From Candidatus Woesearchaeota archaeon CG10_big_fil_rev_8_21_14_0_10_44_13 (GTDB lineage Archaea; Nanobdellota; Nanobdellia; Woesearchaeales; UBA12501), in the NCBI GenBank assembly GCA_002762985.1, contig PCXZ01000030.1, forward strand, positions 80,399-144,398: a stretch of DNA of 64,000 nucleotides, in the 5' to 3' direction. A program made the position numbers and the translations under genes. The notes under the pieces are model-generated. The model was not told the origin of the DNA, made no database searches, and saw only the letters and a program-made list of their open reading frames with translations. The stretch's first letter is position 1; each line of letters opens with the position of its first letter. Shown here piece by piece: positions 4,746 through 62,727 of this stretch.

Positions 4746-4772
4746 TCAGAGATATGCAAATAGGTTGAATAA

Positions 4773-5516: not shown

Positions 5517-5520
5517 TATC

Positions 5521-6492
5521 GTGAGAAAAAGAGACCTTGCAAAAAGACTTCTTCCGTTGTTAGGCATTGCATTGTTCCTGTTCATAATCTCGAAGCTTGA
5601 TATCAATGGCATAATCGGTGTCGCAAAGAACATAAGATGGTGGCTTCTTGTCCTGGGTGTTGTTACCGCTTATCTTGCGGTCTACCTGAAGGCATGGAAA
5701 TGGAAGAAGATAATAGACTACTCGGGCATGAAATACACGCTCTCGAATTCGTTCATTGCGTGGCTTGTCGGATTTGCCGTCGGCATGATAACTCCCGGCC
5801 GCGTAGGTGATTTCTACAGGTCAGTGTATCTTAAGACATCGAACAAGAAGCCCTTGGGCGTCTGCTTCGCGACAGTATTCCTTGACAGGATAGTGGACAT
5901 AATAATCATGCTCATTTTTGCAGGCCTTGGCGTCATTTATCTCATCTTAGGGTACAATGTGCCTTATGGCAGGGAGCTTGCGATAACAGTTGTCGTGCTC
6001 GCTTTGCTAAGCCTCGTGTTCCTGTTCGTTTTCAGGGAGAATGTAGTAAGGAAGCTCGTAAGGCCTCTGTTCTACAGGTTCATACCTGAGAGATACCACA
6101 AGGACATGAAGAAGAACTACAAGAGCTTCTTCAGCCTTTTCAACAGGGTGATGGAAAAACCTTCGATGATTGCCGTGGTTTTCATTATAGGGCTTCTCGG
6201 CTGGCTCATTGCTTTCTTTGAGATGTATCTGCTCGCCCTTGCATTGAATCTTGATGTGAGCTATGTCTTCATCGGCTCGATAGCGCCCATAATAAACATG
6301 ATAGAATTGATACCGATATCATTCTCGGGCATTGGCACGAGGGATGCTGCGATGATATTCTTCATGGGCCTTGTCTCTGTGAACAAGGAGGCTGCAGTCG
6401 CGTTCTCATTGCTGATATTGGTCGTGATATATGTCATAGCGATACCCGGCATAATATATTGGATGAAGCATCCGACGGAATTGCCGAAGTGA
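5521..6492 (+). CDS. Flippase-like membrane protein (UPF0104 / lysyl-PG synthase TM-domain family)
   Basis: GTG start. Multi-TM protein with the 'PGRVGDFYR' motif typical of the TIGR00374 flippase-like family that accompanies GT2 genes. Confidence 0.55.
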   Translation: MRKRDLAKRLLPLLGIALFLFIISKLDINGIIGVAKNIRWWLLVLGVVTAYLAVYLKAWKWKKIIDYSGMKYTLSNSFIAWLVGFAVGMITPGRVGDFYRSVYLKTSNKKPLGVCFATVFLDRIVDIIIMLIFAGLGVIYLILGYNVPYGRELAITVVVLALLSLVFLFVFRENVVRKLVRPLFYRFIPERYHKDMKKNYKSFFSLFNRVMEKPSMIAVVFIIGLLGWLIAFFEMYLLALALNLDVSYVFIGSIAPIINMIELIPISFSGIGTRDAAMIFFMGLVSVNKEAAVAFSLLILVVIYVIAIPGIIYWMKHPTELPK

Positions 6493-6500
6493 ATAAGAAA

Positions 6501-7691: not shown

Positions 7692-7874
7692 AATTGATGG
7701 TTTGGGTTTTAAGGTTTATAAATCTTTTTGATGACTGATTAAGTCAAAACAGATATTGTAAAAGAAGAGCATTATTGCGCCGCGGGCGGCGTGCTTAACA
7801 GGCCTGATTTCAGTATTACAGGATAGTTAAGTATCAGCGATAACTTTAAATAACCTCTTTGTTTGGCCTGTGCT

Positions 7875-9431: not shown

Positions 9432-9440
9432 TAAAAACTG

Positions 9441-10475
9441 ATGATAATAAAAACAGGTGAACCTAAGAAAATGGCCCATTTTGTCTCAATAATAGTGCCT
9501 GTGAAGAATGAACTGAAGTATATCATCGAGTGTGTCAATTCCCTCCTGAATGTCGATTACCCGAAAAACAGCTACGAGATCATCGTAGTGCTTGATAAGA
9601 ATGCGACAGCTGAAGTCGAGAGGGCATTGTCAACTTTCAGGGGAAGGATAAAGGTCGTGAGATCAAAGAGATCAGGGTCAGCTGCGAACAGGAACCTGGG
9701 AGTGATGAAAGCTGACAAAAGGGCGGCATATTTCGCATTCACGGATGCTGACTGCATAGTCAGCAAGAACTGGCTGGGCAGCCTTGTTCACAGGATAAAT
9801 AATTCAAGCAAGGACATAGGCTGCGTAGGCGGATTGAATCTTGTGCCAGAATCAGACAATCAGTTTGCAAAGCTTATCGGCGCAATAGAACAGACCTTGC
9901 TCGGAGGGGGAGGGTCTGCGCAGTCTGCAGTCACAAAGAGGATGAGAATAGTCCAGTCAATACCGAACTGCAATGCCCTGTACAGGAAAGAGCTGTGGAT
10001 TAAGAACAAGCAGGACGAAAACCTTATAATAGGCCAGGACGGAGAATTCAACTACAGGCTCGGAAAGCAGGGAAATAAGTTCTTGATCATACCTAATGCA
10101 GTCGTATGGCACCACAGGACAAACAGCATAAGGAAGCATGTAAGGAGGATGTACAAGTATGGGGAGGCTGCTGCAAGGGTGTTCAAGCTGCACCCGGGCA
10201 TATTGAAAGCAAGGTGGTATGCCTCTTTGTCCTTGTTCGGGATGGCTCTTGTGATAATACTTTTTGTGATATCATTCTCAAGCATTCTCGCATTATACCT
10301 TCTTGAAGGGCTGGTGATTGCATACCTTGCAATGCTGCTTTTGACTACATTGCAGGTCATAGTAAAGCTGAAAAAACCCATCGCCATATTCACTCCGTTC
10401 ATCCTTGCCCTGCAGCACCTGTTCTACAACATAGGTTTTATGGCTGGGCTTGTGGAAATGGAAACCAGAAAGTGA
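9441..10475 (+). CDS. GT2 glycosyltransferase with C-terminal TM anchor
   Basis: 'VSIIVPVKNE' and 'FTDADCIV' DxD motif, followed by two C-terminal TM helices. An alternative start at 9471 (MAHF) is possible. Confidence 0.7.
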   Translation: MIIKTGEPKKMAHFVSIIVPVKNELKYIIECVNSLLNVDYPKNSYEIIVVLDKNATAEVERALSTFRGRIKVVRSKRSGSAANRNLGVMKADKRAAYFAFTDADCIVSKNWLGSLVHRINNSSKDIGCVGGLNLVPESDNQFAKLIGAIEQTLLGGGGSAQSAVTKRMRIVQSIPNCNALYRKELWIKNKQDENLIIGQDGEFNYRLGKQGNKFLIIPNAVVWHHRTNSIRKHVRRMYKYGEAAARVFKLHPGILKARWYASLSLFGMALVIILFVISFSSILALYLLEGLVIAYLAMLLLTTLQVIVKLKKPIAIFTPFILALQHLFYNIGFMAGLVEMETRK

Positions 10476-10487
10476 TTTATCAGGCCA

Positions 10488-11906
10488 TTATGCCTTCCTG
10501 CAATCAAATATATATGCACTATCTTCCCTGAAGACCTCCCTGCAATATGCGCTTAATCTCTCTGCTGCTTCTTCATTAGGCATCCTGTATATCTCAGGTG
10601 TCTTTGATGTAAGGATCACATAATCTATGCCTAACCTGCCTATATTCCCACTGAGATCGCCGAATATGTCTGCATTGTACTGCATATCAGCCCTGTAATT
10701 GAAAGGCCCCCAGTTGAATGTGGCTACTTTGCCCGGATGCGAGATGATCCACTGGCTCGCATGATACTCGCTGTCTGTCGCTGTCTCCAGCCTGACAAAA
10801 TAGTATGCCGAGAATAAGCCCGCGATGACAGAGCACGCGACCAAGACGGCAGTCATATGGAGGTAGTATCTTTTCAGCCTTATCCTCTCGACAAAATGCC
10901 CCCAGCCGTCAGCTCCGAGTATGGCCAATGGGAACAGCAGGAATGCAAGGTTTCTTGTAGGAGGGAAAGGGGCTATGAACTGGAAGAATGATACAAACAC
11001 AAGGAAAATGACAAATGGATAAATTGTTTTTTTATGCTGCGTTTTCATCCTTGAGAAGAAAGCCAGGAACAATGCGGGCAACCCAACCCTTATTGGTATC
11101 AGATACCAGTAGGAATCTACAACGATCTTTTTTGCTATCCCGAGGCCCGCATTAGGGGGAGGGAATGAGATGTACTTGATCAGCATTGGCATGCTGAGTA
11201 TTGCTGTAGAGGCGGCAAGAAGCGCGATATGCTTTATGAAATCAGACCTTTTCCTTATCAAGACGACAATAAGTAATATGAAGTATGTGAAGCCAAGGTA
11301 AGTGGTATAGCTGTAGAAAAGCAGGACTGAGAATATCAGGGCCAGAATGAAATTCACAGCATAATTCCTGTTCTTCGTGTCTTCGAGCATGCTCAAAAGA
11401 TAGTTGAAGCAGAGCAACGAGAGGATTATGCCTAATATCTGCGGCTGGGCATTGGTCGAGCCCAGGACCATGTATTCAGGGGAAAAGACAGCAAGCGCTG
11501 TAGCAAGCAGGGCCTTCTTTTCATCTAGGAATCTCCTTGCCAGAGGATAGAATGCGAAAACGGCCATTGCCGCAAGCAATGAAGGGAAAAACCTGGCAAA
11601 AAAATCCATCCCGAAATAACTTCCGAACCCCAGGATCACATCGAACAGCGGCGGGTAATTGGGGTAGCTTATGCAGTCCTCAACGCTGATGCTATAGAAT
11701 GCCTTTAAGGGAAACCCCCCGTTCCTGAGGTAACATTCAGCCTTCTGTATGTGCTGCCATGCATCATCGCTTGTAGGGTAAGATGTGTACAAGAAAGGGA
11801 GAAGCATGGCTGCAAATGCCATTAAAAACAGCAGCAGAAGCGTTAAACGGCTTTTGTCTTTAACCATATCTTGGACTATTCCCCTTAAGTTTTTAAATAT
11901 TCCCAT
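10488..11906 (-). CDS. GT-C fold membrane glycosyltransferase, paralog 3
   Basis: 472 aa with ~10 TM helices and a C-terminal soluble domain. Same architecture as the paralogs at 1814-3544, 7875-9431 and 16209-18026. Confidence 0.45.
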   Translation of the reverse strand: MGIFKNLRGIVQDMVKDKSRLTLLLLFLMAFAAMLLPFLYTSYPTSDDAWQHIQKAECYLRNGGFPLKAFYSISVEDCISYPNYPPLFDVILGFGSYFGMDFFARFFPSLLAAMAVFAFYPLARRFLDEKKALLATALAVFSPEYMVLGSTNAQPQILGIILSLLCFNYLLSMLEDTKNRNYAVNFILALIFSVLLFYSYTTYLGFTYFILLIVVLIRKRSDFIKHIALLAASTAILSMPMLIKYISFPPPNAGLGIAKKIVVDSYWYLIPIRVGLPALFLAFFSRMKTQHKKTIYPFVIFLVFVSFFQFIAPFPPTRNLAFLLFPLAILGADGWGHFVERIRLKRYYLHMTAVLVACSVIAGLFSAYYFVRLETATDSEYHASQWIISHPGKVATFNWGPFNYRADMQYNADIFGDLSGNIGRLGIDYVILTSKTPEIYRMPNEEAAERLSAYCREVFREDSAYIFDCRKA

Positions 11907-11912
11907 TAAATC

Positions 11913-12075
11913 GGCTCTGTCCTAAATGAAGGTTAGCATCAATTTGTGAGGCTTCTTCTATATAACAATAAAGACGAGAAGGGGGTTGTCCCTTACGGGG
12001 AATCTCGGCCTTAGGTTAAATAAGCAGAAGCCGAACCGATGCTAACCCGAGTGAAGCGAGATTTAGGACAGAGCC
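11913..12075. mobile_element. MITE-like non-autonomous element (163 bp) with imperfect ~28-bp terminal inverted repeats and a 9-bp target-site duplication
   Basis: The left repeat (GGCTCTGTCCTAAAT-gaa-GGTTAGCATC at 11913-11940) and the right repeat (GATGCTAACC-...-ATTTAGGACAGAGCC at 12038-12075) carry exact reverse-complement blocks of 15 and 10 bp. They are flanked immediately by the direct repeat CATTAAATC at 11904-11912 and 12076-12084. Confidence 0.55.
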
Positions 12076-12202
12076 CATTAAATCAGGATTCTTGCGCACG
12101 CACAGCGACGGGGTGGGACTACATTAATCCGTAAGGATTTATCGATGTTGCTTGAATTAGTCGGAGGGCTAAAGCTTTAGCTTTATGCCCCCCTTAGTGT
12201 TG

Positions 12203-12290
12203 CGCTCGACTTGAAAATCGCGGTTGCGGATTTTCAAGATCTGAAAATGGCTTTGCCATTTTCAGCAGATGCGCGTAACCATCTCGAGCG
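12203..12290. repeat. Three-way hairpin cluster: two near-identical 10-12 bp hairpins enclosed by a 7-bp outer stem
   Basis: Hairpin 1 is cTTGAAAATCGC-ggtt-GCgGATTTTCAAg (12210-12238). Hairpin 2 is CTGAAAATGG-ctttg-CCATTTTCAG (12241-12265). The outer stem is CGCTCGA / TCGAGCG (12203-12209 / 12284-12290). An additional hairpin lies at 12166-12190. Confidence 0.5.
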
Positions 12291-12352
12291 GGACGGTTTT
12301 TGAGGAAAAAATGCCTTTTAAGTTACAACAATACACGAATTTCCCATCGCAA

Positions 12353-12365
12353 CCTTTAAATAACC
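12353..12365 (+). promoter_or_regulatory. TATA-like box (CCTTTAAATAACC) upstream of asnB
   Basis: A/T box 20-32 nt upstream of the ATG at 12385. The same spacing recurs at other genes (3574-3583, 32072-32086, 33251-33263), consistent with archaeal leaderless promoters. Confidence 0.4.
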
Positions 12366-12384
12366 AAGTATAAAATAAAACATT

Positions 12385-14319
12385 ATGTGCGGGATAAACG
12401 GCATAGCTGGGTTCGAGGACAAGGAACTCATAAAGAGGATGAATGATGCAGTCGCCCACAGGGGCCCTGATGATTCAGGATTCTTCTCTGACAGGAATGT
12501 TTGCCTCGGCCACAGGAGATTGAGCATAATCGACCTGAGCAAGAGGGGCCACCAGCCCATGTGCAACGAGAACAAGGATATCTGGATAGTTTTCAATGGC
12601 GAGATATACAACTTCAGGGAGCTGAAGAAAGAGCTTGATGAGAAAGGCCATAGGTTCAGCAGCGATTCTGATACAGAGGCGATAATCCACCTTTATGAGG
12701 AGGAAGGGATTGGCTGCGTCAGGAGGCTCAAGGGCATCTTTGCGTTCGCGATATATGATTCGAAAAAGAAGATCGTCTTCATCGCCCGGGACCAGCTTGG
12801 GGTGAAGCCATTGCATTACGCTTTTGTGGATAATGGCAGCAACATGCTCTTCGCGTCAGAGATAAAATCGATCCTCCAATGCGAAAATGTAAGGAGGGAA
12901 GTGAACCTCAATGGCCTCCATAAATTCATGAACTTCAATTACATATTCGGCGGCGAGACATTGTTCAGGGGCATCTTCAAGCTCAACCCTGGCCATTGCT
13001 TGGTCTATGATATAAAGACGAAAAAGCACAGGATAGGTAAGTACTGGGAATTGAAGATAGAGAAGACAGACCACCCCGAGGATTATTATGTCGGAAGGAT
13101 AAGGGAAGGGCTTTCAGAATCGATAAGGATGCAGCTTGTCTCTGATGTGCCTTTAGGGGTTTTCCTCTCAGGAGGCATTGATTCAAGCTCTATCGTGGCA
13201 TTGATGTCGGAATTCGATGACATTGAAAAGCCGATAAAGACCTATGCAGTAGGGTTCAATGAGCCATGGGATGAACTGCATGATGCAAAAAGGGTCAGCG
13301 ATAAGTTCGGCACTGACCACCATGAGATCTATGTCGAAAGCGATGTCCTTAAGCATTACCCTGAGTTCATATGGCATATGGACACGCCAAAGACCAACAT
13401 AAGCCCGCAATTCTACATCTCGAAGCTTGCAAAAAGGTCTGTGACTGTCGCATTGACGGGCCTCGGAGGAGATGAGCTTTTTGCCGGCTATAGGAGGCAT
13501 AAGTATTATTACCATCAGGAAAAAATAAGCGCGATGATACCTGAATCCCTCGGGAAGCCTTTCTTCAGCGCGATGAGCAGGATAGCATTGTCAAACTACC
13601 TCAAAAGAGGGATGATATACCTTGCAAACATACATGATGAAGAGAAGACCTACACTATCGCTGCGCCGTTGCTTGTCTATGAGGATGAGAGGGACGACCT
13701 TTATGGAGAGGGGATGAAGAAGGCAGGATTGCAGGATTTCAAGGACATGCTCAAGCCTTATCTCTCACAGAAGACCAAGAATGATGATGCTGATTATTAC
13801 AACCAGACGCTGAAGATGGAGATAAAGACATACCTCAATGATGACCTCCTCGAGAGGATGGACAGGATGTCCATGGCCCATGCTGTTGAAGCTAGGGTCC
13901 CGTTCCTCGACCATGATTTTGTAGAGTTCGCATTCTCGATACCAAACAAGTACAGGAGGTTCAAGCTAGGCACAACATCAGGCAAGGACCTTCTGTGCAA
14001 GGCCATGAAGGGCAAGGTCCCTGATTTTGTCTTCAAGAAGAAGAAGGTCGGATTCAACATGAGCCCTTATTACTGGTTCAAGGCCCACCTGAGGGAGCAC
14101 ATAAAGAACATACTGACGAAAGAGGCAGTGTACAGGAGGGGGCTTTTCAGCTACAAGTATGTGGAGAGATTCCTGAACAAGAAGCCGTCTGAAAACCTCT
14201 ATTACCAGTACCAGACATTGTGGAACATGATGGCATTCGAGATATGGCACCAGATGTATATCGATGCTGACAGGAAGCGGATCATGAAGCCGAAGATGGG
14301 GATAGAGGATTATTCATGA
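12385..14319 (+). CDS. asnB: Asparagine synthetase (glutamine-hydrolysing) family amidotransferase
   Basis: N-terminal 'MCGI' catalytic Cys of class II glutamine amidotransferases and the 'SGGIDSS' PP-loop. The length of 644 aa fits the family. Confidence 0.85.
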   Translation: MCGINGIAGFEDKELIKRMNDAVAHRGPDDSGFFSDRNVCLGHRRLSIIDLSKRGHQPMCNENKDIWIVFNGEIYNFRELKKELDEKGHRFSSDSDTEAIIHLYEEEGIGCVRRLKGIFAFAIYDSKKKIVFIARDQLGVKPLHYAFVDNGSNMLFASEIKSILQCENVRREVNLNGLHKFMNFNYIFGGETLFRGIFKLNPGHCLVYDIKTKKHRIGKYWELKIEKTDHPEDYYVGRIREGLSESIRMQLVSDVPLGVFLSGGIDSSSIVALMSEFDDIEKPIKTYAVGFNEPWDELHDAKRVSDKFGTDHHEIYVESDVLKHYPEFIWHMDTPKTNISPQFYISKLAKRSVTVALTGLGGDELFAGYRRHKYYYHQEKISAMIPESLGKPFFSAMSRIALSNYLKRGMIYLANIHDEEKTYTIAAPLLVYEDERDDLYGEGMKKAGLQDFKDMLKPYLSQKTKNDDADYYNQTLKMEIKTYLNDDLLERMDRMSMAHAVEARVPFLDHDFVEFAFSIPNKYRRFKLGTTSGKDLLCKAMKGKVPDFVFKKKKVGFNMSPYYWFKAHLREHIKNILTKEAVYRRGLFSYKYVERFLNKKPSENLYYQYQTLWNMMAFEIWHQMYIDADRKRIMKPKMGIEDYS

Positions 14320-16178
14320 AAAACATGAAAAAGGCAGGCAGGAAGAAAGGGAGAGATGACAAGAAGGTAATGAAAGGCCTGGATGGGGGGAAAGGAGCAA
14401 AGTCAGCAAAAACAAAAGACAGAACAATGAAAACCCTTTTCTTCGATGATGATAATATAATGGTGCATGTAGGCGGCGATTCTGTCAAAAGGAACGCAAA
14501 AGAATACCTCACAAAAGAGGATTATGCCTACATGGACAATGAGACATATAAGTTCTTCATGGATTTCGCAGGGCTTCATCCTGACCTCAGGGATTATTTC
14601 GATTACAACGGCATGAATGTCCTGGATTTTGTCGAGGAAGAATTTTGCTTCAAATCAATATTCTCTTACACCATAAAGGACATAGTGAGGGCTATCGGCA
14701 CTACGATGAAGGTGATAGACGCTGAGCAGCCTTTCAAGGTTATAGTGAAAGATGATGTCTCGATAAAAAACAGATGTGCGTTGATGACGGCAAGGGCGAT
14801 GGGCATGAAAACAGGCATAAGCTCGTTTGGATTGCCAAAAAGGATCAATAAGCTCATAAGATCCGATCTTATGTCATATGGTTATGAGATATACCTCAAA
14901 ATCCAGAAATTCAGGAGAAGATTGGACCAGAGGATGGAAAAGGGCAGGGGAGGGATATTGCTGCTGCCATATTATGCTAACCATGCTGATGTCATGAGCC
15001 CGATCATAAGCCTGCTGAAAAAGAAAAAAGAGGATTTTGATGTCGTATGCGTAGATAATATCTTCAATGTTACGAAAAAAAGGCTTGACAGGTATGGGAT
15101 AGGTTATGAGATATTTGAGCATTATTCCAACAAGAAGGTGATGAGTCTTGTGGATACCAATGAAGAGGAATTCAGGGCAAAATGGAAACAGCTCGATAAG
15201 GATATTGAGGCCCAGAACGAGATCAGGTACAGGAAGATAGGTTTGTGGGATATCCTCAGGCCCAGGCTAAGGTTCCTCTTCCTCAGGAGATTCGCACAGG
15301 TCTCAGAGTACATAGAGACAACAAGGCATATGATCTCTGTAAAGAAGCCTTCAATAATTGTGATAGCGAATGACACATCGACTTATGGTAGGGTCGCTGC
15401 AGCTGTCTCAGGGATGGAATCAGTGCCAAACCTGCTTGTCCAGCACGGCGCAGTCGCAGACGAACCGAAGTACAACAGGATATTTGCAGATGATATGGCT
15501 GTTGAAGGGCCTGAAGTCAGGAGATTCTTTATTGAGAAGGGCCTTCCGGAAAACAAGTTCATGGTTACAGGCCAGCCAAGATATGATGTCCTTGCGAGAA
15601 GGGAAGGGATACCGGGCAGGGATGAGATGTGCAGCAAGCTTGGCATAGACGGCAAAAAGAAGGTGATTGTCCTTGCAACACAGGTCCCAGAATGCAATGA
15701 GAAGGTAGTAAGGGCAGTCTATGATGCAGTAAAAGGCATGCAGGACTGCTTTCTTGTAGTGAAGCTCCATCCTGCTGAAAGGACAGACAGGATGTACCAG
15801 GACCTGAGAAAGGAGACAGGGATAAAGAATATAGTGATAGGGAAGGATATCCACCTCTATGGCCTGTTGAATGCCTGCGAGCTCATGATTACTGTCTTCT
15901 CGACTACTGCATTAGAGGCCATGATGCTTGACAGGCCCGTGATCACGATCAACCTGACAGGAGAGCCTGACATGATGCCATACGCAAGCTCTGGAGCTGC
16001 TCTAGGAGTCTACAAGGCAGATGACCTTAAGGATGCGATTGAAAAGGTCATGCATGACAGGAAGACAAAGGAAGCATTGGATAAGAATAGGGAGAAATTC
16101 GTCTATGGCCTTGTCTATAAGATGGATGGTAAGGCGAGCGAGAGGGTTTATTCCCTTATGAAAAATTTGAGAAGATGA
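14316..16178 (+). CDS. GT-B-like capsule/teichoic-type polysaccharide biosynthesis protein (KpsS/LpsZ / TagF-like family)
   Basis: The C-terminal 'VVKLHPAERTD...VFSTTALEAMMLDRPVITI' resembles the HP motif of Capsule_synth / CDP-glycerol glycerophosphotransferase families. The start overlaps the asnB stop (ATGA). Confidence 0.35.
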   Translation: MKNMKKAGRKKGRDDKKVMKGLDGGKGAKSAKTKDRTMKTLFFDDDNIMVHVGGDSVKRNAKEYLTKEDYAYMDNETYKFFMDFAGLHPDLRDYFDYNGMNVLDFVEEEFCFKSIFSYTIKDIVRAIGTTMKVIDAEQPFKVIVKDDVSIKNRCALMTARAMGMKTGISSFGLPKRINKLIRSDLMSYGYEIYLKIQKFRRRLDQRMEKGRGGILLLPYYANHADVMSPIISLLKKKKEDFDVVCVDNIFNVTKKRLDRYGIGYEIFEHYSNKKVMSLVDTNEEEFRAKWKQLDKDIEAQNEIRYRKIGLWDILRPRLRFLFLRRFAQVSEYIETTRHMISVKKPSIIVIANDTSTYGRVAAAVSGMESVPNLLVQHGAVADEPKYNRIFADDMAVEGPEVRRFFIEKGLPENKFMVTGQPRYDVLARREGIPGRDEMCSKLGIDGKKKVIVLATQVPECNEKVVRAVYDAVKGMQDCFLVVKLHPAERTDRMYQDLRKETGIKNIVIGKDIHLYGLLNACELMITVFSTTALEAMMLDRPVITINLTGEPDMMPYASSGAALGVYKADDLKDAIEKVMHDRKTKEALDKNREKFVYGLVYKMDGKASERVYSLMKNLRR

Positions 16179-16208
16179 TGAAAGGGATGATGGATACATG
16201 GTAAATCC

Positions 16209-18026
16209 TTAACTCCTAGAAATCCTATAGAAGAATATCTGATTTTTTTCGTCATAATATAAAAGAGTCATGTTTAGATTGGAATATGCATTGAGCTGTT
16301 CTTGCAAGGGGATATCTTTAATGGGGATTATCAGCACATAAGAGATATTGTAATAATCAATCTCCTGCTCATCCCTCCTGAGGAACAATGAGGCATTCAC
16401 AAGCCCTTTCTCATCGATTATATAATGGGAGTATTTGCCTAACAGCCCCTCTATCTGCATGAGATAGCTTTGCTCCCTTTTCTCGTCGAGTTTGGCCTGG
16501 TAATAAGGGTCCATCACTGCCCTCATCCTAGTATAATGATAGACCTCCCATGTTGGGGTCATGATCACTCCATGCCTGTCAAGATTTGCAGAAGCCCATC
16601 TGCCCAATCTTTCAAGGCCCTGCTGCTCGCTGAGAAACTGCTGCTGAGGGGATCTTGTATAATCAAGCAGGCTGGAAAGGTCGTAAAATGAGAATGCGAT
16701 TGTTGCTATGATGAATAGGGCTGTCCAAAAAACACGGCTTGGCTTTTTCCTCTTCTTCAATATGGATAGGACATGATTGACTGCGATAGGCGCACCCATC
16801 AAAAAGAAGGGAAAGAAATACCTGTCCCTCCATAAATACCACCCGCCTATTGAAACGAAGTAGGCCATGGAGAATATGATGGATGATACCAAGAATATCT
16901 TCTCATAATCTGAAAGATCATGCTTCAGATGGCATATCAGCTTATCAGCTGCGCTGCCATGGCTGCTACCCCCATTGCGCATGAACCTGCCGGTCGGTTT
17001 GCCAAGGAATCTGTCGATAAATGAGAGTATGAGGAATATGAGGATTAAAGGGGTGAATATCCAAGGCAGACGGAATATCATCTTATATGCTGTGAAAACC
17101 TTCGCATTGATTATGTTGGCAGGCGGCTCGCTCAGATAAGACTGCAGTGTTGGCTGGCTTGTATCATACATGAGCCTGTGCCAGTTAAGCGAATATTTGT
17201 AGAGATTTGTGGCGCTATAGAAAGGTTTTCCAAAATTGTCATAGGTGTATAACCCAAGAGGCACCATGATTATGGCGAAGGCCAGGACCATCATCATGAG
17301 GCCTTTCTTGCTTATGTCCCTCTTCTCGAAGAAAATGAAGAACATGAACAGTAGCATGATTGAGCCGAAAAAAACCAGGCCGAGATAGTTGATATAAGTG
17401 AGTATCGCAAATAGTATTCCCGATGCGATATAATGCTTAGGTTCATTCTTTTTGAACGTGAAGTAGAGGGAAGTTATTGTCAAGACGAAGAAAAAGAAAT
17501 AAACGCTTTCCCTCATTATTATCCCTGCAGAGTATATAGAGGTGGCATTTACTGCAACAATCAACGTCGATATGACCCCCACAGTCCGATTGTATAAGCG
17601 GGACGAGAGCAGATATATTATGACCAGCATAAGGATGTAAAAAAACAATGAAGAGAGTTTTGCTATCGCTATCGAGCTGCCGAAAAGCCAGAATGCCCCT
17701 GCAAGGATATAATGATAGCCAGGAGGGTAGACTGGGCTTGGATAAGGGATTAAAGGGATCCTGAACCAGTATGTCCATACAAAATCCTGCACAGGGCCTT
17801 TCCCATCATGGATGTTCTCTGCAATATTATAATGGTATGCCTCATCACCTCTTTCAAGGAACCTGTCGAATCCGGCAGTAGTCGTTATGAAATATAAGAC
17901 GCAACCTGCGCCTGCAGCAAGGATAAGCATGACCAACAAGAACGGCTTAAGTTCATGTTTCATCCCTGTTGATGCGGATTTACTGGATTTCCTGGTTTTC
18001 CTTGTGTTCCTGGTTTTTTTCGCCAT
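16209..18026 (-). CDS. GT-C fold membrane glycosyltransferase, paralog 4
   Basis: 605 aa with ~12 TM helices, a basic N-terminal tail and a C-terminal soluble domain. Confidence 0.45.
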   Translation of the reverse strand: MAKKTRNTRKTRKSSKSASTGMKHELKPFLLVMLILAAGAGCVLYFITTTAGFDRFLERGDEAYHYNIAENIHDGKGPVQDFVWTYWFRIPLIPYPSPVYPPGYHYILAGAFWLFGSSIAIAKLSSLFFYILMLVIIYLLSSRLYNRTVGVISTLIVAVNATSIYSAGIIMRESVYFFFFVLTITSLYFTFKKNEPKHYIASGILFAILTYINYLGLVFFGSIMLLFMFFIFFEKRDISKKGLMMMVLAFAIIMVPLGLYTYDNFGKPFYSATNLYKYSLNWHRLMYDTSQPTLQSYLSEPPANIINAKVFTAYKMIFRLPWIFTPLILIFLILSFIDRFLGKPTGRFMRNGGSSHGSAADKLICHLKHDLSDYEKIFLVSSIIFSMAYFVSIGGWYLWRDRYFFPFFLMGAPIAVNHVLSILKKRKKPSRVFWTALFIIATIAFSFYDLSSLLDYTRSPQQQFLSEQQGLERLGRWASANLDRHGVIMTPTWEVYHYTRMRAVMDPYYQAKLDEKREQSYLMQIEGLLGKYSHYIIDEKGLVNASLFLRRDEQEIDYYNISYVLIIPIKDIPLQEQLNAYSNLNMTLLYYDEKNQIFFYRISRS

Positions 18027-57587: not shown

Positions 57588-60494
57588 ATGATAATTTACA
57601 AAGAGAAGCAGGACAGCGAAGAGAAATTGCTGAATATACTGAACCCTACAGTCAGGAAGTGGTTCTTCAGCAGGTTCAAGGAATTCTCACTCCCTCAGCT
57701 TTTCGGCGTGACAGAGATACATTCCAGGAAGAATATACTTGTGTCTGCCCCTACTGGAGCTACAAAGACGCTGACTGCATTCCTCTCTGTGCTTAACGAG
57801 CTTGTCGATTCTGCTGAAAAAGGCATATTGGAGAACAAGATCTACTGCGTTTATATTTCTCCACTCAAGGCGCTGAACAATGACATAGAAAAAAATCTTG
57901 TAGAGCCATTGAAGCAGATTGAGGATATCGCCGGCAAAAAACTCGGCATAAGGGTCGCTGTAAGGACAGGAGACACTACAACGACCGAGAAATCCGCGAT
58001 GCTGAGAAATCCGCCGCACATATTGATAACGACGCCTGAAAGCCTTGCCATAATCCTGGCCTCAATAAAGTTCGTCGATCATCTGAAGGCAGTCGACTGG
58101 GTGATAATAGATGAGATACATGCGCTTGCAGAGAACAAGAGGGGGGTGCATCTTTCATTGAGCGTCGAAAGGCTGCAGAGGCTCAGCAGGTACACTGCAA
58201 GAGTGGGGCTTAGCGCCACTATCGCCCCATTGGAAGAGATAGCCAAATTCCTTGTCGGGTCTGAAACAAGAGACAAGGATAGAGGGGACAAGGAGAGAGA
58301 CTGCATAATCGTTGATGTCCAGTTCCTGAAGAAGATGGACCTCAAGGTGCTGAGCCCTGTCCCGAACCTGATAGAGACCGAGCACAACATAATGCACAAT
58401 GAGATGTATGTGCTGATGGACAGGCTCATACAGGAGCACAAGACTACATTGATATTCACGAACACGAGGTCTGCGACAGAACGTGTTGTACATCATCTCA
58501 AGGAGAAATTCCCTAAGAATTACACTGAGAACATCGGGGCCCATCATGGGAGCCTGAGCAAAGAGCTGAGGTTTGAGATAGAAGAAAAGCTTAGGAAAGG
58601 TGAACTTAAGGTCGTTGTGAGCTCGACAAGCCTTGAATTGGGGATTGATATAGGCTATATAGACCTGGTCATCCTCCTTGGCAGCCCGAAAAGCGTTGCG
58701 AGGGCCCTGCAGAGGATAGGCAGGAGCGGCCACAGGCTGCATGAGACCACAAAAGGCAGGATCATAGTCCTTGACAGGGATGACCTTGTCGAATGCTCTG
58801 TCCTCCTCAAGGCGGCAATCGAGAAGAAGATAGACAAGATCCACATCCCTAAGAACTCCCTTGATGTCCTTGCACAGCACGTCCATGGGATTGCGCTCGA
58901 AGGGCAGATACATTTTGATGAGATGTTCGATATCGTCAGAGGCTCATACTGCTATGAAAACCTGAAAAGATCCGAGCTGAAGGAGATCGTCGAATATCTT
59001 GCAGGCAAATTCATCTCGCTTGAGGACAGGAACATCTACGCAAAGATATGGTATGATGAAAAGACAGGCATGATGGGCAAAAGAGGGAGATTGAGCAGGG
59101 TCATACACATGACGAACATCGGCACGATACCTGATGAGACTGGAGTCAAAGTAAAGCTCGGTGACAGGATAATAGGTGTCATAGAGGAGGCTTTCCTGGA
59201 AAGGCTCAGCAGAGGGGACATCTTTGTCCTGGGCGGTGAAGTCTATGAATTCCTTCATGCGAGAGGGATGTCCATACAGGTGAGGGCATCGCCGCAGAGG
59301 CCCCCCAATGTCCCATCATGGTTCTCTGAGATGCTTCCATTGAGCTTTGACCTCGCATTGGAGATAGGGAGATTCAGGAGGCTGTTGGGGGAGAAGATAG
59401 AGGCAGGGAAGACAAAAGATGCGGCCATAGAGTTCATACTGTCCTACCTTTATGTTGATCAAAATGGCGCAAACTCCATCTATGAATATTTCAGGGAACA
59501 GTTCGATTATGTCGCAGAGATCCCTGAGGATAAGAAGATACTTATAGAGAATTACAGGGATGAGGGGGGGAGGAACAATGCGGTCTTCCATACCTTGTAT
59601 GGCCGGAGGGTTAATGACTGCCTCAGCAGGGCTGTTGCTTTTGCAATAGGGAGGACCCAGCATAAGGATGTCGAGCTCGGCATAAGCGACAATGGCTTCT
59701 ATGTGGCGTCTGCTTCCAAGATAAACGCCCTTGCGGCATTCAGGCTCCTGAAAGCCAAGGATTTCGACAAGGTGCTCTCGAATGCTATAGAGAAGACAGA
59801 GATCCTCAAGAGAAGGTTCAGACACTGCGCAACAAGGGCATTGATGATATTGAGGAGCTATGGGGGGAGGACAAAGAACGTCGGAAGGCAGCAGGTAAGT
59901 TCCATGATACTGATGAATACTGTGAAAAGGATAAACCCTGATTTTTTCATAATCAAGGAGGCCAAGAGGGAAGTCCTTGAGGACCTCATGGATATAGAGA
60001 ATGCAAAGAGGATACTGACAAGGGTTGAGAATGAGGACATAGCGATAAAAGAGATAGTGACTGTGATACCTAGCCCTTTCGCCTTCAGCCTGGTCCTGCA
60101 AGGCAAAGTCGATGTGATGAGGATAGAGGACAAAGTCGAGTTCCTGAGGAGGATGCATAAGAATGTCCTTGCAAAGATCTCCCTGAAGCAGGGTAAAAAG
60201 CTGTCAGCCAAAGAGGAGAAGGAGATCGATTATGAGGAAGTATGGAAAAATGCTGAAGAGAGGAAGCTCACGAAGGAAGAGGAAGAGAAGAAAGAGCTTA
60301 AGATCATGGTGTGGAACCTGAAAAGAGCCCCTTTATTTGCAAAACAGGAGATCATTGACATAATCGACGGCAAAAAAGAGACGGACATAAGCGAGGAATT
60401 CATATCTGCATTGAGGAAATACAGGAAAGAGATCGAGAAGACCTGGCCAAAGGAGCTCAGGAAGCTCGTTTTTGACAGGGTAAGATTAAGCTGA
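57588..60494 (+). CDS. lhr: Lhr-family (Lhr-core) ATP-dependent DNA helicase
   Basis: 968 aa. 'VSAPTGATKT' Walker A, 'DEIH' box and an Lhr-type winged-helix C-terminal extension. Confidence 0.75.
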   Translation: MIIYKEKQDSEEKLLNILNPTVRKWFFSRFKEFSLPQLFGVTEIHSRKNILVSAPTGATKTLTAFLSVLNELVDSAEKGILENKIYCVYISPLKALNNDIEKNLVEPLKQIEDIAGKKLGIRVAVRTGDTTTTEKSAMLRNPPHILITTPESLAIILASIKFVDHLKAVDWVIIDEIHALAENKRGVHLSLSVERLQRLSRYTARVGLSATIAPLEEIAKFLVGSETRDKDRGDKERDCIIVDVQFLKKMDLKVLSPVPNLIETEHNIMHNEMYVLMDRLIQEHKTTLIFTNTRSATERVVHHLKEKFPKNYTENIGAHHGSLSKELRFEIEEKLRKGELKVVVSSTSLELGIDIGYIDLVILLGSPKSVARALQRIGRSGHRLHETTKGRIIVLDRDDLVECSVLLKAAIEKKIDKIHIPKNSLDVLAQHVHGIALEGQIHFDEMFDIVRGSYCYENLKRSELKEIVEYLAGKFISLEDRNIYAKIWYDEKTGMMGKRGRLSRVIHMTNIGTIPDETGVKVKLGDRIIGVIEEAFLERLSRGDIFVLGGEVYEFLHARGMSIQVRASPQRPPNVPSWFSEMLPLSFDLALEIGRFRRLLGEKIEAGKTKDAAIEFILSYLYVDQNGANSIYEYFREQFDYVAEIPEDKKILIENYRDEGGRNNAVFHTLYGRRVNDCLSRAVAFAIGRTQHKDVELGISDNGFYVASASKINALAAFRLLKAKDFDKVLSNAIEKTEILKRRFRHCATRALMILRSYGGRTKNVGRQQVSSMILMNTVKRINPDFFIIKEAKREVLEDLMDIENAKRILTRVENEDIAIKEIVTVIPSPFAFSLVLQGKVDVMRIEDKVEFLRRMHKNVLAKISLKQGKKLSAKEEKEIDYEEVWKNAEERKLTKEEEEKKELKIMVWNLKRAPLFAKQEIIDIIDGKKETDISEEFISALRKYRKEIEKTWPKELRKLVFDRVRLS

Positions 60495-60537
60495 AAAACA
60501 AAAAAATATTTAAATCAGCAGCAGGGGTTGTAGGGTT

Positions 60538-61065
60538 ATGGGGGGAAAGATAGTCGTTGTTGACGAGAAGGATAACTTCCTGAGGGAAGAGGAAAAATCG
60601 AGATGCCATGAGGGAGAAGGGATGCTCCATAGGGCATTCTCTGCGTTCATATTCAATGATAAGAACGAGCTTCTTATCCAGAAGAGGAGCAGGTTCAAGG
60701 TATTATGGCCCATGCACTGGAGCAATAGCTGCTGCAGCCACCCAATAAAAGGCGAAACCTATGAAGGGGCGGCAGAAAGGAGGATAAGAGAGGAGCTCGG
60801 CATCAGCTGCAAGATGAGGCTGCTTTTCAAATTCCAGTACAGCGCAAAATATGGCGATATCGGCTCTGAGAATGAGCTTTGCGCTGTCCTCGCAGGGAGA
60901 TGCGGCAGTAAAATAAAGATTGGCCCTGACCCAAAGGAGATAGCAGAATTCAAATTTGTTGATGTCAAAGAACTGAAAAAGGACATTGAAAAAAATCCTG
61001 ATGTATACACTCCATGGTTCAAGATGGAGCTTGGAAGGGTATTGAAAGAGATGATGATGGGATAG
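60538..61065 (+). CDS. idi: Isopentenyl-diphosphate Δ-isomerase, type 1 (Nudix)
   Basis: 'HRAFSAFIFN', 'WSNSCCSHP' (catalytic Cys) and a Nudix 'GAAERRIREELGI' box. Confidence 0.75.
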   Translation: MGGKIVVVDEKDNFLREEEKSRCHEGEGMLHRAFSAFIFNDKNELLIQKRSRFKVLWPMHWSNSCCSHPIKGETYEGAAERRIREELGISCKMRLLFKFQYSAKYGDIGSENELCAVLAGRCGSKIKIGPDPKEIAEFKFVDVKELKKDIEKNPDVYTPWFKMELGRVLKEMMMG

Positions 61066-61078
61066 AGAATATGCGAAG

Positions 61079-61930
61079 GTGGTCAAAATCGAAGTGATGC
61101 TTGCTGAACATATGGGTATGTGCAATGGGATGAGGAAGGCAGTGAAACTTGCTGAAGAGACGGCTGAAATGTACAGAGGCAACGGCGGGGTCTATATGCT
61201 CGGCCCGATCGCCCATAACCCCCATGTCATGGCCTATTTCAAGGAGAAAGGAGTGGTGAAAGTTGATTCTATCGACGAGATAAGGGCAGAAGCAGGGACA
61301 GTGATAATAAGGGCGCATGGCGTTCCTGACAGCGTCAAGAAGAGTGCTGCAGAAAGGGGGATGAATGTAGTTGATGCTACATGCAATCTTGTCCTTAGAT
61401 CGAAAGATATCGCAAAGATGCTTGAAAATGAGAAATACAAAGTTGTTATCTATGGCGAAAAAAAACATCCTGAGATAATTGGCATAGCAGGGAATCTTGC
61501 TGACCCATTGATTATTGAAGATCTTGACCAGGCAAGAAGCCTCAGTTTATACAAAACAATGGGCCTGATAGCACAGACTACAAGCATGCCTGAAAAATAT
61601 GCTGAGATACAGAAAGAGCTCAGGGCCCATTGTGAATGCCTCAGGATTGAGGATACGATATGCATGGCGACGCAGAACAGGCAGGACTCAGGAAGAAAAA
61701 CAGCCGAAAGGGCAGAATTGATGCTTGTCGTAGGCGATGCAAGCTCATCAAACAGCATGAACTTACTCAAGGCATGCAAGGAGGTCAATGAGTATACTTT
61801 CATGGTCAGCGATGCATCTGGCCTGAAGCCAAACTATTTCAAGGGGATAAAGAAGATCGGCCTTACTGCGAGCGCATCTTCTCCTGAATGGGTCATAAAT
61901 GGCATCGTCAATGCATTAAGGGGCATGTAG
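61079..61930 (+). CDS. ispH: 4-hydroxy-3-methylbut-2-enyl diphosphate reductase (IspH/LytB)
   Basis: IspH blocks 'GMCNGMRKAV', 'GPIAHN', 'RAHGV', 'DATCNLV', 'GEKKHPEIIG', 'QTTS', 'ICMATQNRQ', 'LVVGDASSSNS' and 'GLTASASSPE', plus three cluster Cys. Alternative starts at 61097 or 61112 are possible. Confidence 0.8.
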   Translation: MVKIEVMLAEHMGMCNGMRKAVKLAEETAEMYRGNGGVYMLGPIAHNPHVMAYFKEKGVVKVDSIDEIRAEAGTVIIRAHGVPDSVKKSAAERGMNVVDATCNLVLRSKDIAKMLENEKYKVVIYGEKKHPEIIGIAGNLADPLIIEDLDQARSLSLYKTMGLIAQTTSMPEKYAEIQKELRAHCECLRIEDTICMATQNRQDSGRKTAERAELMLVVGDASSSNSMNLLKACKEVNEYTFMVSDASGLKPNYFKGIKKIGLTASASSPEWVINGIVNALRGM

Positions 61931-61989: not shown

Positions 61990-62727
61990 ATGGATATATC
62001 AAAGAATATCAAAATAGTCGATTTGGGGCTGAAGATAGGCAAAACCCTCATCCTGGCAGACCTCCATATAGGCTATGAAGAGGCATTGAACAAGCAGGGA
62101 CTGATGGTGCCCAGATTTCAGTTCAAAGACCTTCAGGAAAGGCTTGAGAAAATCCTGAAAAAAGCAAATCCTGACGTGATTGTCGTGAACGGCGACATAA
62201 AGCATGAGTTCGGCAGGATCTCAGGGCAGGAATGGAGGGAAACACTGAAGATACTGGATCTTCTGGCTAGGAATTCAAAGAGGGTTATACTTGTCAGGGG
62301 CAATCATGATAAAAAACTCGGGCCGATAGCGAAGAAGAGGGATATTGAGGTAGTTGATGAGTATGAGATTGGGGGAGATGATATAAAAGGAAGGGAGGGT
62401 AAGATCCTTGTCGTCCATGGCGACAAAGAGACAAGGCTGCCGAAAAACACAAGAACGATAATCATCGGCCACGAGCATCCTGCTGTCTCGATAAGAGAAG
62501 GGCAGAGAACAGAGACATTCAAGTGCTTTCTGAAGGGAAAATACAGAGGCAAAGAGCTTATTGTAATGCCGTCGTGCAACCTCGTGACAGAGGGCAGCGA
62601 TATCACAAAAGAGGGTGTTCTGAGCCCGTTCCTGAAGCAGAGACTTGATGATTTCGAGGTTTTTGTGGTAGAAGATGCTGAGAGTGATAAGATATACCGG
62701 TTTGGAAAGCTGAAGAATATAAGATAG
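61990..62727 (+). CDS. Calcineurin-like metallophosphoesterase (MPE-type phosphoesterase/nuclease family)
   Basis: 'ILADLHIG', 'VVNGDIKHEFG', 'VRGNHD' and 'GHEHP' are metallophosphoesterase motifs I-V. Confidence 0.65.
   Translation: MDISKNIKIVDLGLKIGKTLILADLHIGYEEALNKQGLMVPRFQFKDLQERLEKILKKANPDVIVVNGDIKHEFGRISGQEWRETLKILDLLARNSKRVILVRGNHDKKLGPIAKKRDIEVVDEYEIGGDDIKGREGKILVVHGDKETRLPKNTRTIIIGHEHPAVSIREGQRTETFKCFLKGKYRGKELIVMPSCNLVTEGSDITKEGVLSPFLKQRLDDFEVFVVEDAESDKIYRFGKLKNIR

Follow-up and report, generated by a model that had tools for sequence, protein, structure and literature searches.

A type 1 isopentenyl-diphosphate isomerase gene paired with ispH in a woesearchaeal genome: a candidate terminal MEP module that may draw on external HMBPP

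INTRODUCTION

Archaea normally obtain IPP from mevalonate and carry a type 2 isopentenyl-diphosphate isomerase (IDI), the type 1 enzyme (IDI1) being typical of bacteria and eukaryotes. In the MEP pathway, the [4Fe-4S] enzyme IspH reduces HMBPP to IPP and DMAPP, the two compounds that IDI interconverts. That some Woesearchaeota have a full MEP pathway of bacterial type has been reported before (Castelle and Banfield 2018, cited in Huang 2021, PMC8421398), its genes being co-located in a clade of 52 genomes and in subgroup J (Castelle 2021, PMC8204110; Huang 2021, PMC8421398). It is also the only isoprenoid-precursor pathway that Huang 2021 (PMC8421398) reports from woesearchaeal genomes, which implies that these lack a mevalonate pathway. 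An IspH in Woesearchaeota is therefore not new as such. On L004, a related archaeal contig, dxs, ispG, dxr, a fused ispDF, ispE, and ispH are clustered and a cis-prenyltransferase gene adjoins ispH. Partial MEP pathways have been described in reduced or host-associated bacteria, namely, Listeria, Mollicutes, and Rickettsia (PMC13001223). Such gene sets bear on two questions, namely, where DPANN archaea that have neither the mevalonate nor the MEP pathway obtain their precursors and which organisms serve as hosts for Woesearchaeota.

Here we describe an idi-ispH gene pair from the metagenome-assembled genome (MAG) of Candidatus Woesearchaeota archaeon CG10_big_fil_rev_8_21_14_0_10_44_13 (MAG 44_13; GCA_002762985.1), a small, probably host-dependent archaeon. 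The MAG was recovered from Crystal Geyser groundwater, has a coverage of approximately 13x and a GC content of approximately 44 to 45%, and is 90.2% complete with 0.98% contamination. The pair lies in a 64-kb stretch of a 153-kb contig; this stretch is referred to below as the window. It has in common with the woesearchaeal MEP clusters the phylum, a bacterial-type IspH that was probably gained by horizontal gene transfer (HGT), and the products IPP and DMAPP, but the window ispH has no upstream MEP genes nearby, is paired with IDI1, and sits in a slot between the genes for an Lhr helicase and a metallophosphoesterase (MPE). Compared with the canonical bacterial end of the pathway (IspH of E. 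coli and A. aeolicus; Idi of E. coli), the protein families and the catalytic and cluster-binding residues are the same, whereas the host is archaeal, IspG and the steps before it are apparently lacking, and idi and ispH form one operon-like unit. Like the bacteria with partial pathways, the organism has an apparently incomplete gene set and would need precursors from partners. Listeria, however, retains the upstream part of the pathway as far as MEcPP, and some Rickettsia retain only IspD, whereas the window retains the last step and the isomerase, a combination that is sensible only with an imported substrate. The archaeal mevalonate route ends in the same two products and likewise requires that IPP and DMAPP be balanced, and a close relative (L011) does use a type 2 IDI beside IspH; the window differs from that route in its Nudix-type isomerase and in having no mevalonate-pathway gene except a thiolase.

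RESULTS

A sequence-only reading of the window had placed co-oriented idi and ispH neighbors at 60538-61930, and two plus-strand ORFs were found at exactly those positions (Table 1). The intergenic gaps are 43 nt between lhr and idi, 13 nt between idi and ispH, and 59 nt between ispH and the next gene. Since only 13 nt separate them, idi and ispH are probably cotranscribed, and the A/T-rich element upstream of idi is a possible archaeal promoter for the joint transcript. A scan for sigma-70 promoters and terminators is uninformative for an archaeal host. The public gene call starts ispH 15 nt later, at 61094, giving a protein of 278 aa, and this shorter form corresponds to P0001 on the JGI contigs.

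Table 1. Features of the window that are discussed in the text
Feature	Position	Strand	Details
Glycosylation island, part (43 kb total)	1814..18026	.	Pfam PMT_2/PMT and GT2 matches
Four PMT_2 (GT-C) genes	1814-3544, 7863-9431, 10488-11906, 16209-18026		Pfam
Lhr-core type ATP-dependent helicase, left slot border	57588..60494	+	968 aa; NF010338, 1196 bits (cut-off 849)
TATA-like A/T-rich element AAATATTTAAAT, possible promoter	60504..60515	+	23-34 nt 5' of the idi ATG; read from sequence
idi, type 1 isopentenyl-diphosphate delta-isomerase, Nudix fold (activity predicted)	60538..61065	+	175 aa
ispH (lytB), HMBPP reductase (activity predicted)	61079..61930	+	283 aa; GTG start at 61079
MPE/PdeM-like metallophosphoesterase (SbcD_rel_arch), right slot border	61990..62727	+	245 aa; TIGR00024, 186 bits (cut-off 115); Pfam Metallophos

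The idi product scored 149.2 bits against TIGR02150 (cut-off 105.8) and 154.3 bits against NF002995 (cut-off 127). It also matched Pfam NUDIX, and its scores against generic Nudix hydrolase models were far below their cut-offs. When aligned with the solved IDI1 structures from human, Salmonella, and E. coli, it was found to retain H24, H31, C66, H68, E86, E111, E113, and the tryptophan of the TPW motif, which are equivalent to H25, H32, C67, H69, E87, E114, E116, and W161 of the E. coli enzyme. The catalytic pair Cys67/Glu116 and the metal ligands His25, His32, His69, and Glu114 (E. coli numbering) are thus all present. The gene, whose product is 100% identical to NCBI protein PIN86322.1, encodes a type 1 IPP isomerase by family and residues, with the corresponding activity predicted.

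The ispH product scored 244.4 bits against TIGR00216 (cut-off 187.85) and 269.3 bits against Pfam LYTB (PF02401; cut-off 24.5), and the nearest solved structure was that of A. aeolicus IspH (3DNF; E value of 6e-57). A MAFFT alignment with the E. coli and A. aeolicus proteins showed that 13 of 13 key residues are kept (E. coli numbering: the three cluster cysteines, H41, H74, H124, E126, T167, T168, S225, S226, N227, and S269). The [4Fe-4S]-ligating cysteines C12, C96, and C197 are present not only in the window protein but also in L002, L013, and P0003. The gene encodes IspH/LytB, and HMBPP reductase activity is predicted for it.

Several features of the contig look bacterial, namely, IspH, IDI1, NrdR, and many glycosyltransferases of bacterial type, and the nearest named relatives of IspH outside its own clade are from Clostridia, at approximately 30 to 35% identity. 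These features would suit a bacterial contig or a piece of bacterial DNA placed in an archaeal bin by mis-assembly, and a bacterial-like contig was one of two options left by the sequence-only reading. This option fails. On this contig, PCNA and an archaeal RNase J are encoded no more than 3 kb downstream of ispH, Lhr and MPE genes are there too, and the window Lhr and IDI match, at 100% identity, NCBI proteins assigned to MAG 44_13. Furthermore, identical synteny has been assembled independently from several samples and with several assemblers (JGI, Logan, and NCBI), idi and ispH do not differ in GC content (0.46) from the flanking DNA, and NCBI places the contig in Woesearchaeota. Given the archaeal markers, the repeated synteny, the matching GC content, and the NCBI assignment, bacterial origin or mis-assembly was rejected, its probability being negligible in our judgment.

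Both border genes of the slot scored above their family cut-offs, and the helicase has the DEAD, Helicase_C, WH_Lhr, and DEAD_assoc domains. In the window, idi-ispH lies between them, and in relatives the intervening cargo differs; L002, L011, L012, L082, and L083 each have a homologous phosphoesterase after Lhr and variable cargo. Pairs of idi1 with ispH were seen again in L002/L003 and in L013, hence in two further lineages at the least. In the Lhr-MPE slot of L011, a type 2 IDI (TIGR02151, 423 bits) adjoins IspH, and in the same slot of L012, a relative whose Lhr is 78% identical, it is IspG that adjoins IspH. Among the relatives, GCA_042576685.1 has the IDI2-IspH arrangement and GCA_046484055.1 has IspG-IspH. 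Because the pairing recurs, and does so with a type 2 IDI in the same slot, the adjacency of idi and ispH is not accidental. IspH is kept repeatedly beside an isomerase of either type, even a nonhomologous one. As for signs of a mobile island around the pair, there was no tRNA gene in the window, there were no meaningful flanking repeats, and there was neither an integrase in the neighborhood nor a deviant GC content. A scan of GTDB genomes with a single IspH query found no relative, and a scan with an Lhr alignment found one genome only, L008 (Lhr 66% identical), which has no idi or ispH beside Lhr. Neither scan brought up a GTDB species representative that belongs to the IDI1-linked clade.

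The window IspH is 56% identical to that of L002, compared with 77 to 87% for the neighboring genes, and its dN is 0.35, compared with 0.08 to 0.15 in the flanking genes, i.e., approximately fourfold faster. The dN/dS ratios for the same two genomes were approximately 0.08 for IspH and 0.10 to 0.17 for IDI; these values are rough and indicative only, dS being saturated, and they suggest purifying selection on both genes despite rapid change. Fast evolution and replacement by a divergent allele are both compatible with the saturated dS and cannot be separated, and the high dN of IspH could reflect relaxed constraint or an altered substrate. Among three genomes in which Lhr is 76 to 78% identical, IspH is only 31 to 41% identical, and the IspH of L011 falls below the TIGR00216 cut-off and has an H41N substitution.

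In neighbor-joining analysis, the IDI1-linked IspH proteins formed a separate clade (98/100 bootstrap), and they are only 37 to 40% identical to the cluster-type archaeal IspH. At least five diverged members of this clade have a full-length, intact IspH with all catalytic residues, and IDI1 lies beside three of them. The lineage of the window IspH is rare: among 1.84 billion representatives, just two 50%-identity clusters are 47% or more identical to it. At the deep nodes that place the three IspH types, neighbor-joining support was at most 41%, and no bacterial donor was assigned.

The divergence of IspH at 56% identity and a dN of 0.35 beside well-conserved neighbors, its 31 to 41% identity among genomes with similar Lhr, the low score and H41N change in L011, and the rarity of the lineage could all be taken to mean that the enzyme has been repurposed. 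It would then act on another substrate or have a nonisoprenogenic role, with IDI or a neighbor handling the product and HMBPP not being the physiological substrate. A review describes both substrate promiscuity of IspH and nonisoprenogenic roles of partial MEP pathways in bacteria (PMC13001223). However, the HMBPP-specific residues for diphosphate binding, proton relay, and the cluster are all kept in the IDI1-linked copies, and IspH is consistently accompanied by an IPP/DMAPP isomerase, whichever its type, or by IspG, which points to the canonical substrate and products. We therefore consider repurposing to be quite unlikely. The raised dN, together with the apparent loss of the upstream genes, would also be compatible with a decaying remnant of a lost MEP pathway that is heading toward pseudogenes and has no present function. 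This is very improbable in view of the five or more diverged members of the well-supported clade that have intact ORFs and complete catalytic residues, the dN/dS of approximately 0.1 (with dS saturated), the tight, operon-like gene spacing, and the isomerase of a different fold that L011 has beside IspH at the same place.

MEP genes may be dispersed, so 64 kb by itself shows little about the rest of the pathway. It had been claimed from the sequence that no other MEP gene occurs in the 64 kb, and tblastn and Pfam scans confirmed this and extended it to the next 8 kb. In tblastn searches of the window and the 8 kb downstream (72 kb) with Dxs, Dxr, IspDF, IspE, and IspG of L004, ispH was the sole match, and Pfam scans that covered approximately 55 of the 59 called ORFs of the window, among them nearly all of the larger ones, detected no MEP or mevalonate gene except one thiolase. 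Neither a ferredoxin or flavodoxin partner nor a prenyltransferase was seen in the window.

Published annotation was consistent with this result. MAG 44_13 does not figure in the complete alignments of dxs, dxr, ispE, and ispG in Huang 2021 (PMC8421398), in which other subgroup D MAGs are included. The source data of Fig. 3a in that paper give, for the 13 MAGs of subgroup D, two with dxr, dxs, ispD, ispF, and ispG, one with ispE, and three with ispH (PMC8421398), counts that agree with the upstream genes being missing from 44_13. The two MEP-positive MAGs of the subgroup, CG11_..._43_8 and CG08_land_..._43_7, both contribute to the alignments of dxs, dxr, and ispG, and that of ispE includes only CG08 of the two (PMC8421398). 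On the basis of the published annotation and name searches in the alignments, MAG 44_13 thus appears to have ispH without dxs, dxr, ispE, and ispG.

An ispH gene with the other six MEP genes absent is also recorded in subgroups B (1/8), C (1/11), E (1/9), and I (2/21) (PMC8421398). There are accordingly five ispH-only MAGs in these four subgroups, and the other six genes account for 0 of 294 possible gene calls, making incompleteness an unlikely cause of the pattern. The published presence/absence tables therefore already hold an "ispH alone" pattern in several woesearchaeal subgroups, which is not discussed in the text of Huang 2021 (PMC8421398) to the extent that this text was available. A metagenome scan for IspG, a weak one that used two peptide patterns only, returned 68 loci with identities of up to 54%, all of them from samples other than the source sample Ga0066639.

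DISCUSSION

The second option of the sequence-only reading was a host-dependent archaeon that had acquired the terminal pair on its own. A terminal pair fits the lack of upstream genes in the 72 kb and in the published MAG data, but its stand-alone acquisition does not follow, as the two genes may instead be the remnant of a full MEP pathway. The remnant origin is suggested by the known occurrence of the MEP pathway in Woesearchaeota and by the relative that retains IspG beside IspH. Common ancestry is not apparent from the IspH tree, however, and independent acquisition into the slot has equal standing.

Whichever of these origins applies, the reading that we favor, holding it to be about as probable as all else, is that idi-ispH is a terminal MEP module retained in a DPANN archaeon and fed by external HMBPP. 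The pair would represent the terminal module of a bacterial-type MEP pathway that was acquired by some Woesearchaeota, and it would be carried as cargo in the variable slot between Lhr and its putative MPE nuclease partner. With the six upstream genes apparently absent, a lack that we extend to the whole genome from the 72 kb and the published MAG annotation, the module would be unable to form isoprenoid precursors from sugars. HMBPP, and possibly IPP or DMAPP, would have to be supplied externally, with bacterial neighbors or hosts as the most plausible source. We know of no HMBPP transporter, and none is evident in the window.

The main rival is an ordinary full MEP pathway in which the upstream genes are located elsewhere, probably in one unbinned cluster, and idi-ispH is its dispersed end. 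Complete, co-located pathways are published for the 52-genome clade and subgroup J, L004 carries such a cluster, L012 retains IspG beside IspH while having an Lhr that is 78% identical, and MAG 44_13 is just 90.2% complete. In cluster genomes, however, ispH is within the cluster, as in L004, whereas in the window it lies apart from any such cluster and forms a pair with idi. In addition, 44_13 is absent from four independent MEP alignments containing other subgroup D MAGs, five MAGs from four subgroups have ispH only (0/294 calls for the other genes), and the weak scan with two peptide patterns found no IspG relative on contigs of the source sample. We consider a full pathway unlikely on this evidence. 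If the upstream genes do sit in the unbinned fraction, the finding reduces to the already known HGT-derived pathway.

A point to be set beside external feeding is that the MAG is approximately 90% complete and that a single unbinned contig of approximately 12 kb could hold all six upstream genes, because the MEP genes of Woesearchaeota usually lie together (Castelle 2021, PMC8204110; L004).

A wider and more tentative proposal, possible but on the whole doubtful, is that some host-dependent Woesearchaeota keep interchangeable end modules (IspH with IDI1, IspH with IDI2, or IspG with IspH) in one slot and salvage bacterial HMBPP with them, or MEcPP where IspG is kept. If true, this would amount to a new form of pathway-end parasitism and provide a genomic marker of the dependence of these DPANN archaea on bacterial rather than archaeal partners. 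An end-only module with an isomerase of either fold, under purifying selection, offers a testable hypothesis of HMBPP uptake from bacteria and a simple marker that can be sought in other genomes.

Under external HMBPP supply, the resulting C5 units would then feed the remaining prenyl products, for example, polyprenyl-phosphate sugar carriers for the glycosylation island of the window. The PMT_2 family includes glycosyltransferases that depend on polyprenyl-phosphate sugars, and from general biochemistry the four PMT_2 genes of the island (Table 1) are possible consumers of such IPP-derived carrier lipids.

The idi-ispH pair belongs to an archaeal genome

The interval 60538-61930, in which the sequence-only reading had placed adjacent genes for a type 1 isopentenyl-diphosphate isomerase (IDI) and IspH, was found to be filled by two co-oriented ORFs whose products both score over curated cut-offs. 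IDI scored 149 bits against TIGR02150 (cut-off, 106) and 154 bits against NF002995 (cut-off, 127). Aligned to the IDI1 structures solved for human, Salmonella and E. coli, it retains both metal histidines of the N-terminal part, the catalytic cysteine within the motif NSCCSHP and the catalytic glutamate within ENELC; the C-terminal tryptophan of these structures is also present. IspH scored 244 bits against TIGR00216 (cut-off, 188) and 269 bits against Pfam LYTB, and its nearest solved structure was that of Aquifex aeolicus IspH (E value of 6e-57). All 13 residues checked were kept, comprising the three [4Fe-4S] cysteines and, in E. coli numbering, H41, H74, H124, E126, T167, T168, S225, S226, N227 and S269. 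Public gene calls start ispH at 61094, giving a protein of 278 aa. The genes are separated by 13 nt, and an A/T-rich TATA-like element lies 23 to 34 nt 5' of the idi start codon; judged from the sequence, a single idi-ispH transcript is likely.

Features of the window
Feature	Position	Strand	Profile match
Glycosylation/surface-polysaccharide island	1-43047		
Zinc ribbon/3-hydroxyacyl-CoA dehydrogenase fusion	23209-24321	-	
Thiolase	24358-25515	-	
ORFs of 463, 378, 161 and 222 aa	43682-45073; 32108-33244; 46889-48039	-; +; -	no Pfam match at E = 0.1
NrdR, ribonucleotide reductase, CobA	53248-56792	-	
151-aa protein	56926-57381	-	weakly Peptidase_U32_C-like
Lhr-core helicase, left of pair	57588-60494	+	NF010338, 1196 bits
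idi, type 1 IDI, 175 aa	60538-61065	+	TIGR02150, NF002995
ispH, 283 aa	61079-61930	+	TIGR00216, Pfam LYTB
MPE/PdeM-like phosphoesterase, right of pair	61990-62727	+	TIGR00024, 186 bits

One option raised earlier was that the contig is bacterial-like. PCNA and an archaeal RNase J are encoded downstream of the window on the same contig, the window IDI is 100% identical to NCBI PIN86322.1, and Lhr matches, at 100% identity, an "ATP-dependent helicase" from the MAG Candidatus Woesearchaeota archaeon CG10_big_fil_rev_8_21_14_0_10_44_13 (hereafter 44_13). Because of these archaeal genes and matches, a bacterial contig was rejected, its probability being close to nil. Huang et al. 2021 list the MAG (GCA_002762985.1) under subgroup D, from Crystal Geyser groundwater, as 90.2% complete with 0.98% contamination, a GC content of 0.444 and a size of 1.5 Mb (PMC8421398).

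The rest of the MEP pathway

The observation that no other MEP gene occurs in the 64 kb held. A tblastn search of the window and 8 kb downstream with Dxs, Dxr, IspDF, IspE and IspG of an archaeal MEP cluster gave ispH as the sole match, and a Pfam scan of nearly all larger ORFs (about 55 of the 59 called) revealed no MEP or mevalonate-pathway gene beyond idi-ispH except a thiolase.

Bacterial MEP genes in Woesearchaeota had already been described (Castelle and Banfield 2018, as cited by Huang et al., PMC8421398). The pathway, with co-located genes, is known from 52 genomes that form a monophyletic clade (Castelle et al. 2021, PMC8204110) and, with a fused ispDF, from subgroup J (Huang et al. 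2021, PMC8421398). We also found a cluster of dxs, ispG, dxr, fused ispDF, ispE, ispH and a cis-prenyltransferase gene on an archaeal contig (L004) encoding an RpoL-like subunit, its IspH being 37% identical to that of the window. IspH in Woesearchaeota is therefore not new.

For subgroup D, the Fig. 3a source table of Huang et al. gives dxr, dxs, ispD, ispF and ispG in 2 of 13 MAGs each, ispE in 1 and ispH in 3 (PMC8421398). The supplementary dxs, dxr and ispG alignments contain exactly two subgroup D MAGs, CG11_..._43_8 and CG08_land_..._43_7, and only one of the two is in that of ispE, in agreement with those frequencies (PMC8421398). MAG 44_13 is missing from these four alignments, none of which is truncated, yet is present in other gene alignments of that study; since the window carries ispH, 44_13 is the third ispH-positive MAG, without the rest, as far as these tables go. 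Similarly, ispH is tabulated without the other six MEP genes in subgroups B (1/8), C (1/11), E (1/9) and I (2/21), a pattern undiscussed in the portions of the text available to us (PMC8421398). The gene-history table lists ispH as an intra-phylum "Transfer" and dxr and ispG as "Origination", with the node of each entry unstated. According to the same source, MEP is the sole isoprenoid-precursor pathway found in Woesearchaeota genomes, implying that there is no mevalonate pathway (PMC8421398).

A full MEP pathway elsewhere in the genome is unlikely but deserves weight: given the clustering of these genes in Woesearchaeota, all of them could lie on a single unbinned contig of ~12 kb within the ~10% of the genome that is missing. 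A metagenome scan for IspG, limited to two peptide patterns, yielded no locus from the source sample. The alternative proposed in the sequence-only reading, a host-dependent archaeon that had acquired the pair, was borne out in part: the terminal pair is in an archaeon, and the upstream genes are absent from the published tables. The pair may equally have descended from the known woesearchaeal MEP pathway or have been acquired separately.

The Lhr-MPE interval carries variable cargo

Lhr-core and MPE genes are usually adjacent partners, forming a nucleic-acid repair gene pair. In relatives, the interval between them held differing genes, indicating a variable cargo slot; no integrase or repeats were evident around it.

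Contents of the Lhr-MPE interval in relatives
Locus	Lhr identity to window	Cargo
L002/L003	85%	IDI1, IspH; PCNA further downstream
L013 (2.5-kb contig)	Lhr not on contig	IDI1, IspH
L011 (GCA_042576685.1)	76%	type 2 IDI (TIGR02151, 423 bits), divergent IspH
L012 (GCA_046484055.1)	78%	IspG (TIGR00612, 410 bits), unknown gene, IspH
L082	71%	MTHFR, P-type ATPase, DUF2238
L083	68%	CoaE, PPAT-like gene, 2-hydroxyacid dehydrogenase, MetOD1, others

Within the window's sub-clade IspH is the constant occupant, and its partner is always the enzyme of the preceding step (IspG) or of the following one (an isomerase, with one or the other of two unrelated folds). The pairing was correctly observed and is non-random. 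The best case for joint action of IspH and the isomerase on the canonical metabolites comes from L011, where IDI2 in place of IDI1 lies beside IspH. Repurposing of IspH is rated somewhat less probable than a hidden pathway. Such IspH-plus-partner modules in this slot appear to be undescribed in the literature searched, as does a terminal-only MEP state.

NCBI labels the Lhr of the L011 contig (JBHPEX010000053.1) "Thermoproteota archaeon." The contig nevertheless belongs with the window's Woesearchaeota relatives, as judged from its 76% Lhr identity and the order of its genes (NrdR, Lhr, cargo, MPE, DUF5679, PCNA, RNase J), and the label is probably wrong.

IspH is divergent but constrained

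Between the window and L002, identity was 87% for PCNA, 79% for RNase J, 77% for MPE, 71% for IDI and 56% for IspH; dN was 0.35 for IspH, 0.20 for IDI and 0.08 to 0.09 for Lhr and PCNA. When the window, L011 and L012 were compared with one another, identity was 76 to 78% for Lhr and 31 to 41% for IspH. In an exhaustive search with phmmer, covering 1.84 billion cluster representatives, no more than two clusters were at least 47% identical to the window IspH. The low identities, high dN and few relatives indicate that this IspH is rare and either fast-evolving or repeatedly replaced. The NG86 dS for ispH (61079-61930 versus L002:4455-5306) was ~4.3, which is saturated, versus 1.1 to 1.4 for flanking genes; this noisy estimate hints that the two alleles predate the genome split, for example through recombinational replacement by a divergent allele.

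In a neighbor-joining tree that lacked support at deeper nodes, the IDI1-linked IspHs formed one clade (98/100), the IspG-linked IspH grouped with another protein, P0007 (99/100), and more loosely with archaeal IspH of the cluster type, and the IDI2-linked IspH was a long unplaced branch. Even so, the alignments show constraint on all catalytic positions of the window IspH. With dN/dS between the window and L002 near 0.1, a rough value given the saturated dS, a functionless remnant is a distinctly improbable explanation.

A possible terminal module

The reading we favor, at about an even chance, is a retained terminal module in which IspH would convert imported HMBPP into IPP and DMAPP and IDI would balance the products; imported IPP or DMAPP would serve just as well as substrates of IDI. 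A review summarizes the build-up of MEcPP and HMBPP in stressed bacteria and the sensing of bacterial HMBPP by immune cells of the host (PMC13001223); that this archaeon might take up HMBPP is something we purely infer. Polyprenyl-phosphate lipid carriers serving the glycosylation island would be a plausible sink; in L004, a cis-prenyltransferase gene adjoins ispH. The island is very large, occupying two-thirds of the window in a genome of 1.5 Mb, and encodes five PMT_2 GT-C enzymes, five GT2, GT4, NeuB, a CMP-sugar synthetase, a Wzx-like flippase, two DegT aminotransferases, four NAD-dependent epimerases/dehydratases, UDP-glucose dehydrogenase, phosphoglucomutase, asparagine synthase, a carbamoyltransferase and a radical SAM/SPASM protein.

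Other features of the window

The remainder includes DNA repair genes, the thiolase and its neighboring fusion protein, and NrdR with a ribonucleotide reductase (RNR); no tRNA or rRNA was found in the window. The fusion comprises an N terminus of ~90 aa, a DUF35/ChsH2-like rubredoxin zinc ribbon and a 3-hydroxyacyl-CoA dehydrogenase. In archaea, DUF35 proteins usually act as a scaffold that joins thiolase to HMG-CoA synthase where the mevalonate pathway begins; the dehydrogenase in the synthase's place suggests a channelled route from acetoacetyl-CoA to 3-hydroxybutyryl-CoA.

The bacterial-type NrdR adjoins an ATP-cone RNR and the corrinoid adenosyltransferase CobA, suggesting a B12-dependent class II enzyme. 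At the equivalent place, L011 has NrdR with class III NrdD and a radical-SAM activase, and L082 has NrdR, NrdD, activase and a class I/II-type reductase. The locus is thus conserved, but the class of RNR that it encodes differs between genomes. The 151-aa protein upstream of Lhr is very lysine/alanine-rich in its N-terminal half, its weak Pfam match being C-terminal; at that position L011 has an 87-aa gene with the same weak match, and L012 has an 87-aa gene with a different one (GTP_EFTU_D2).
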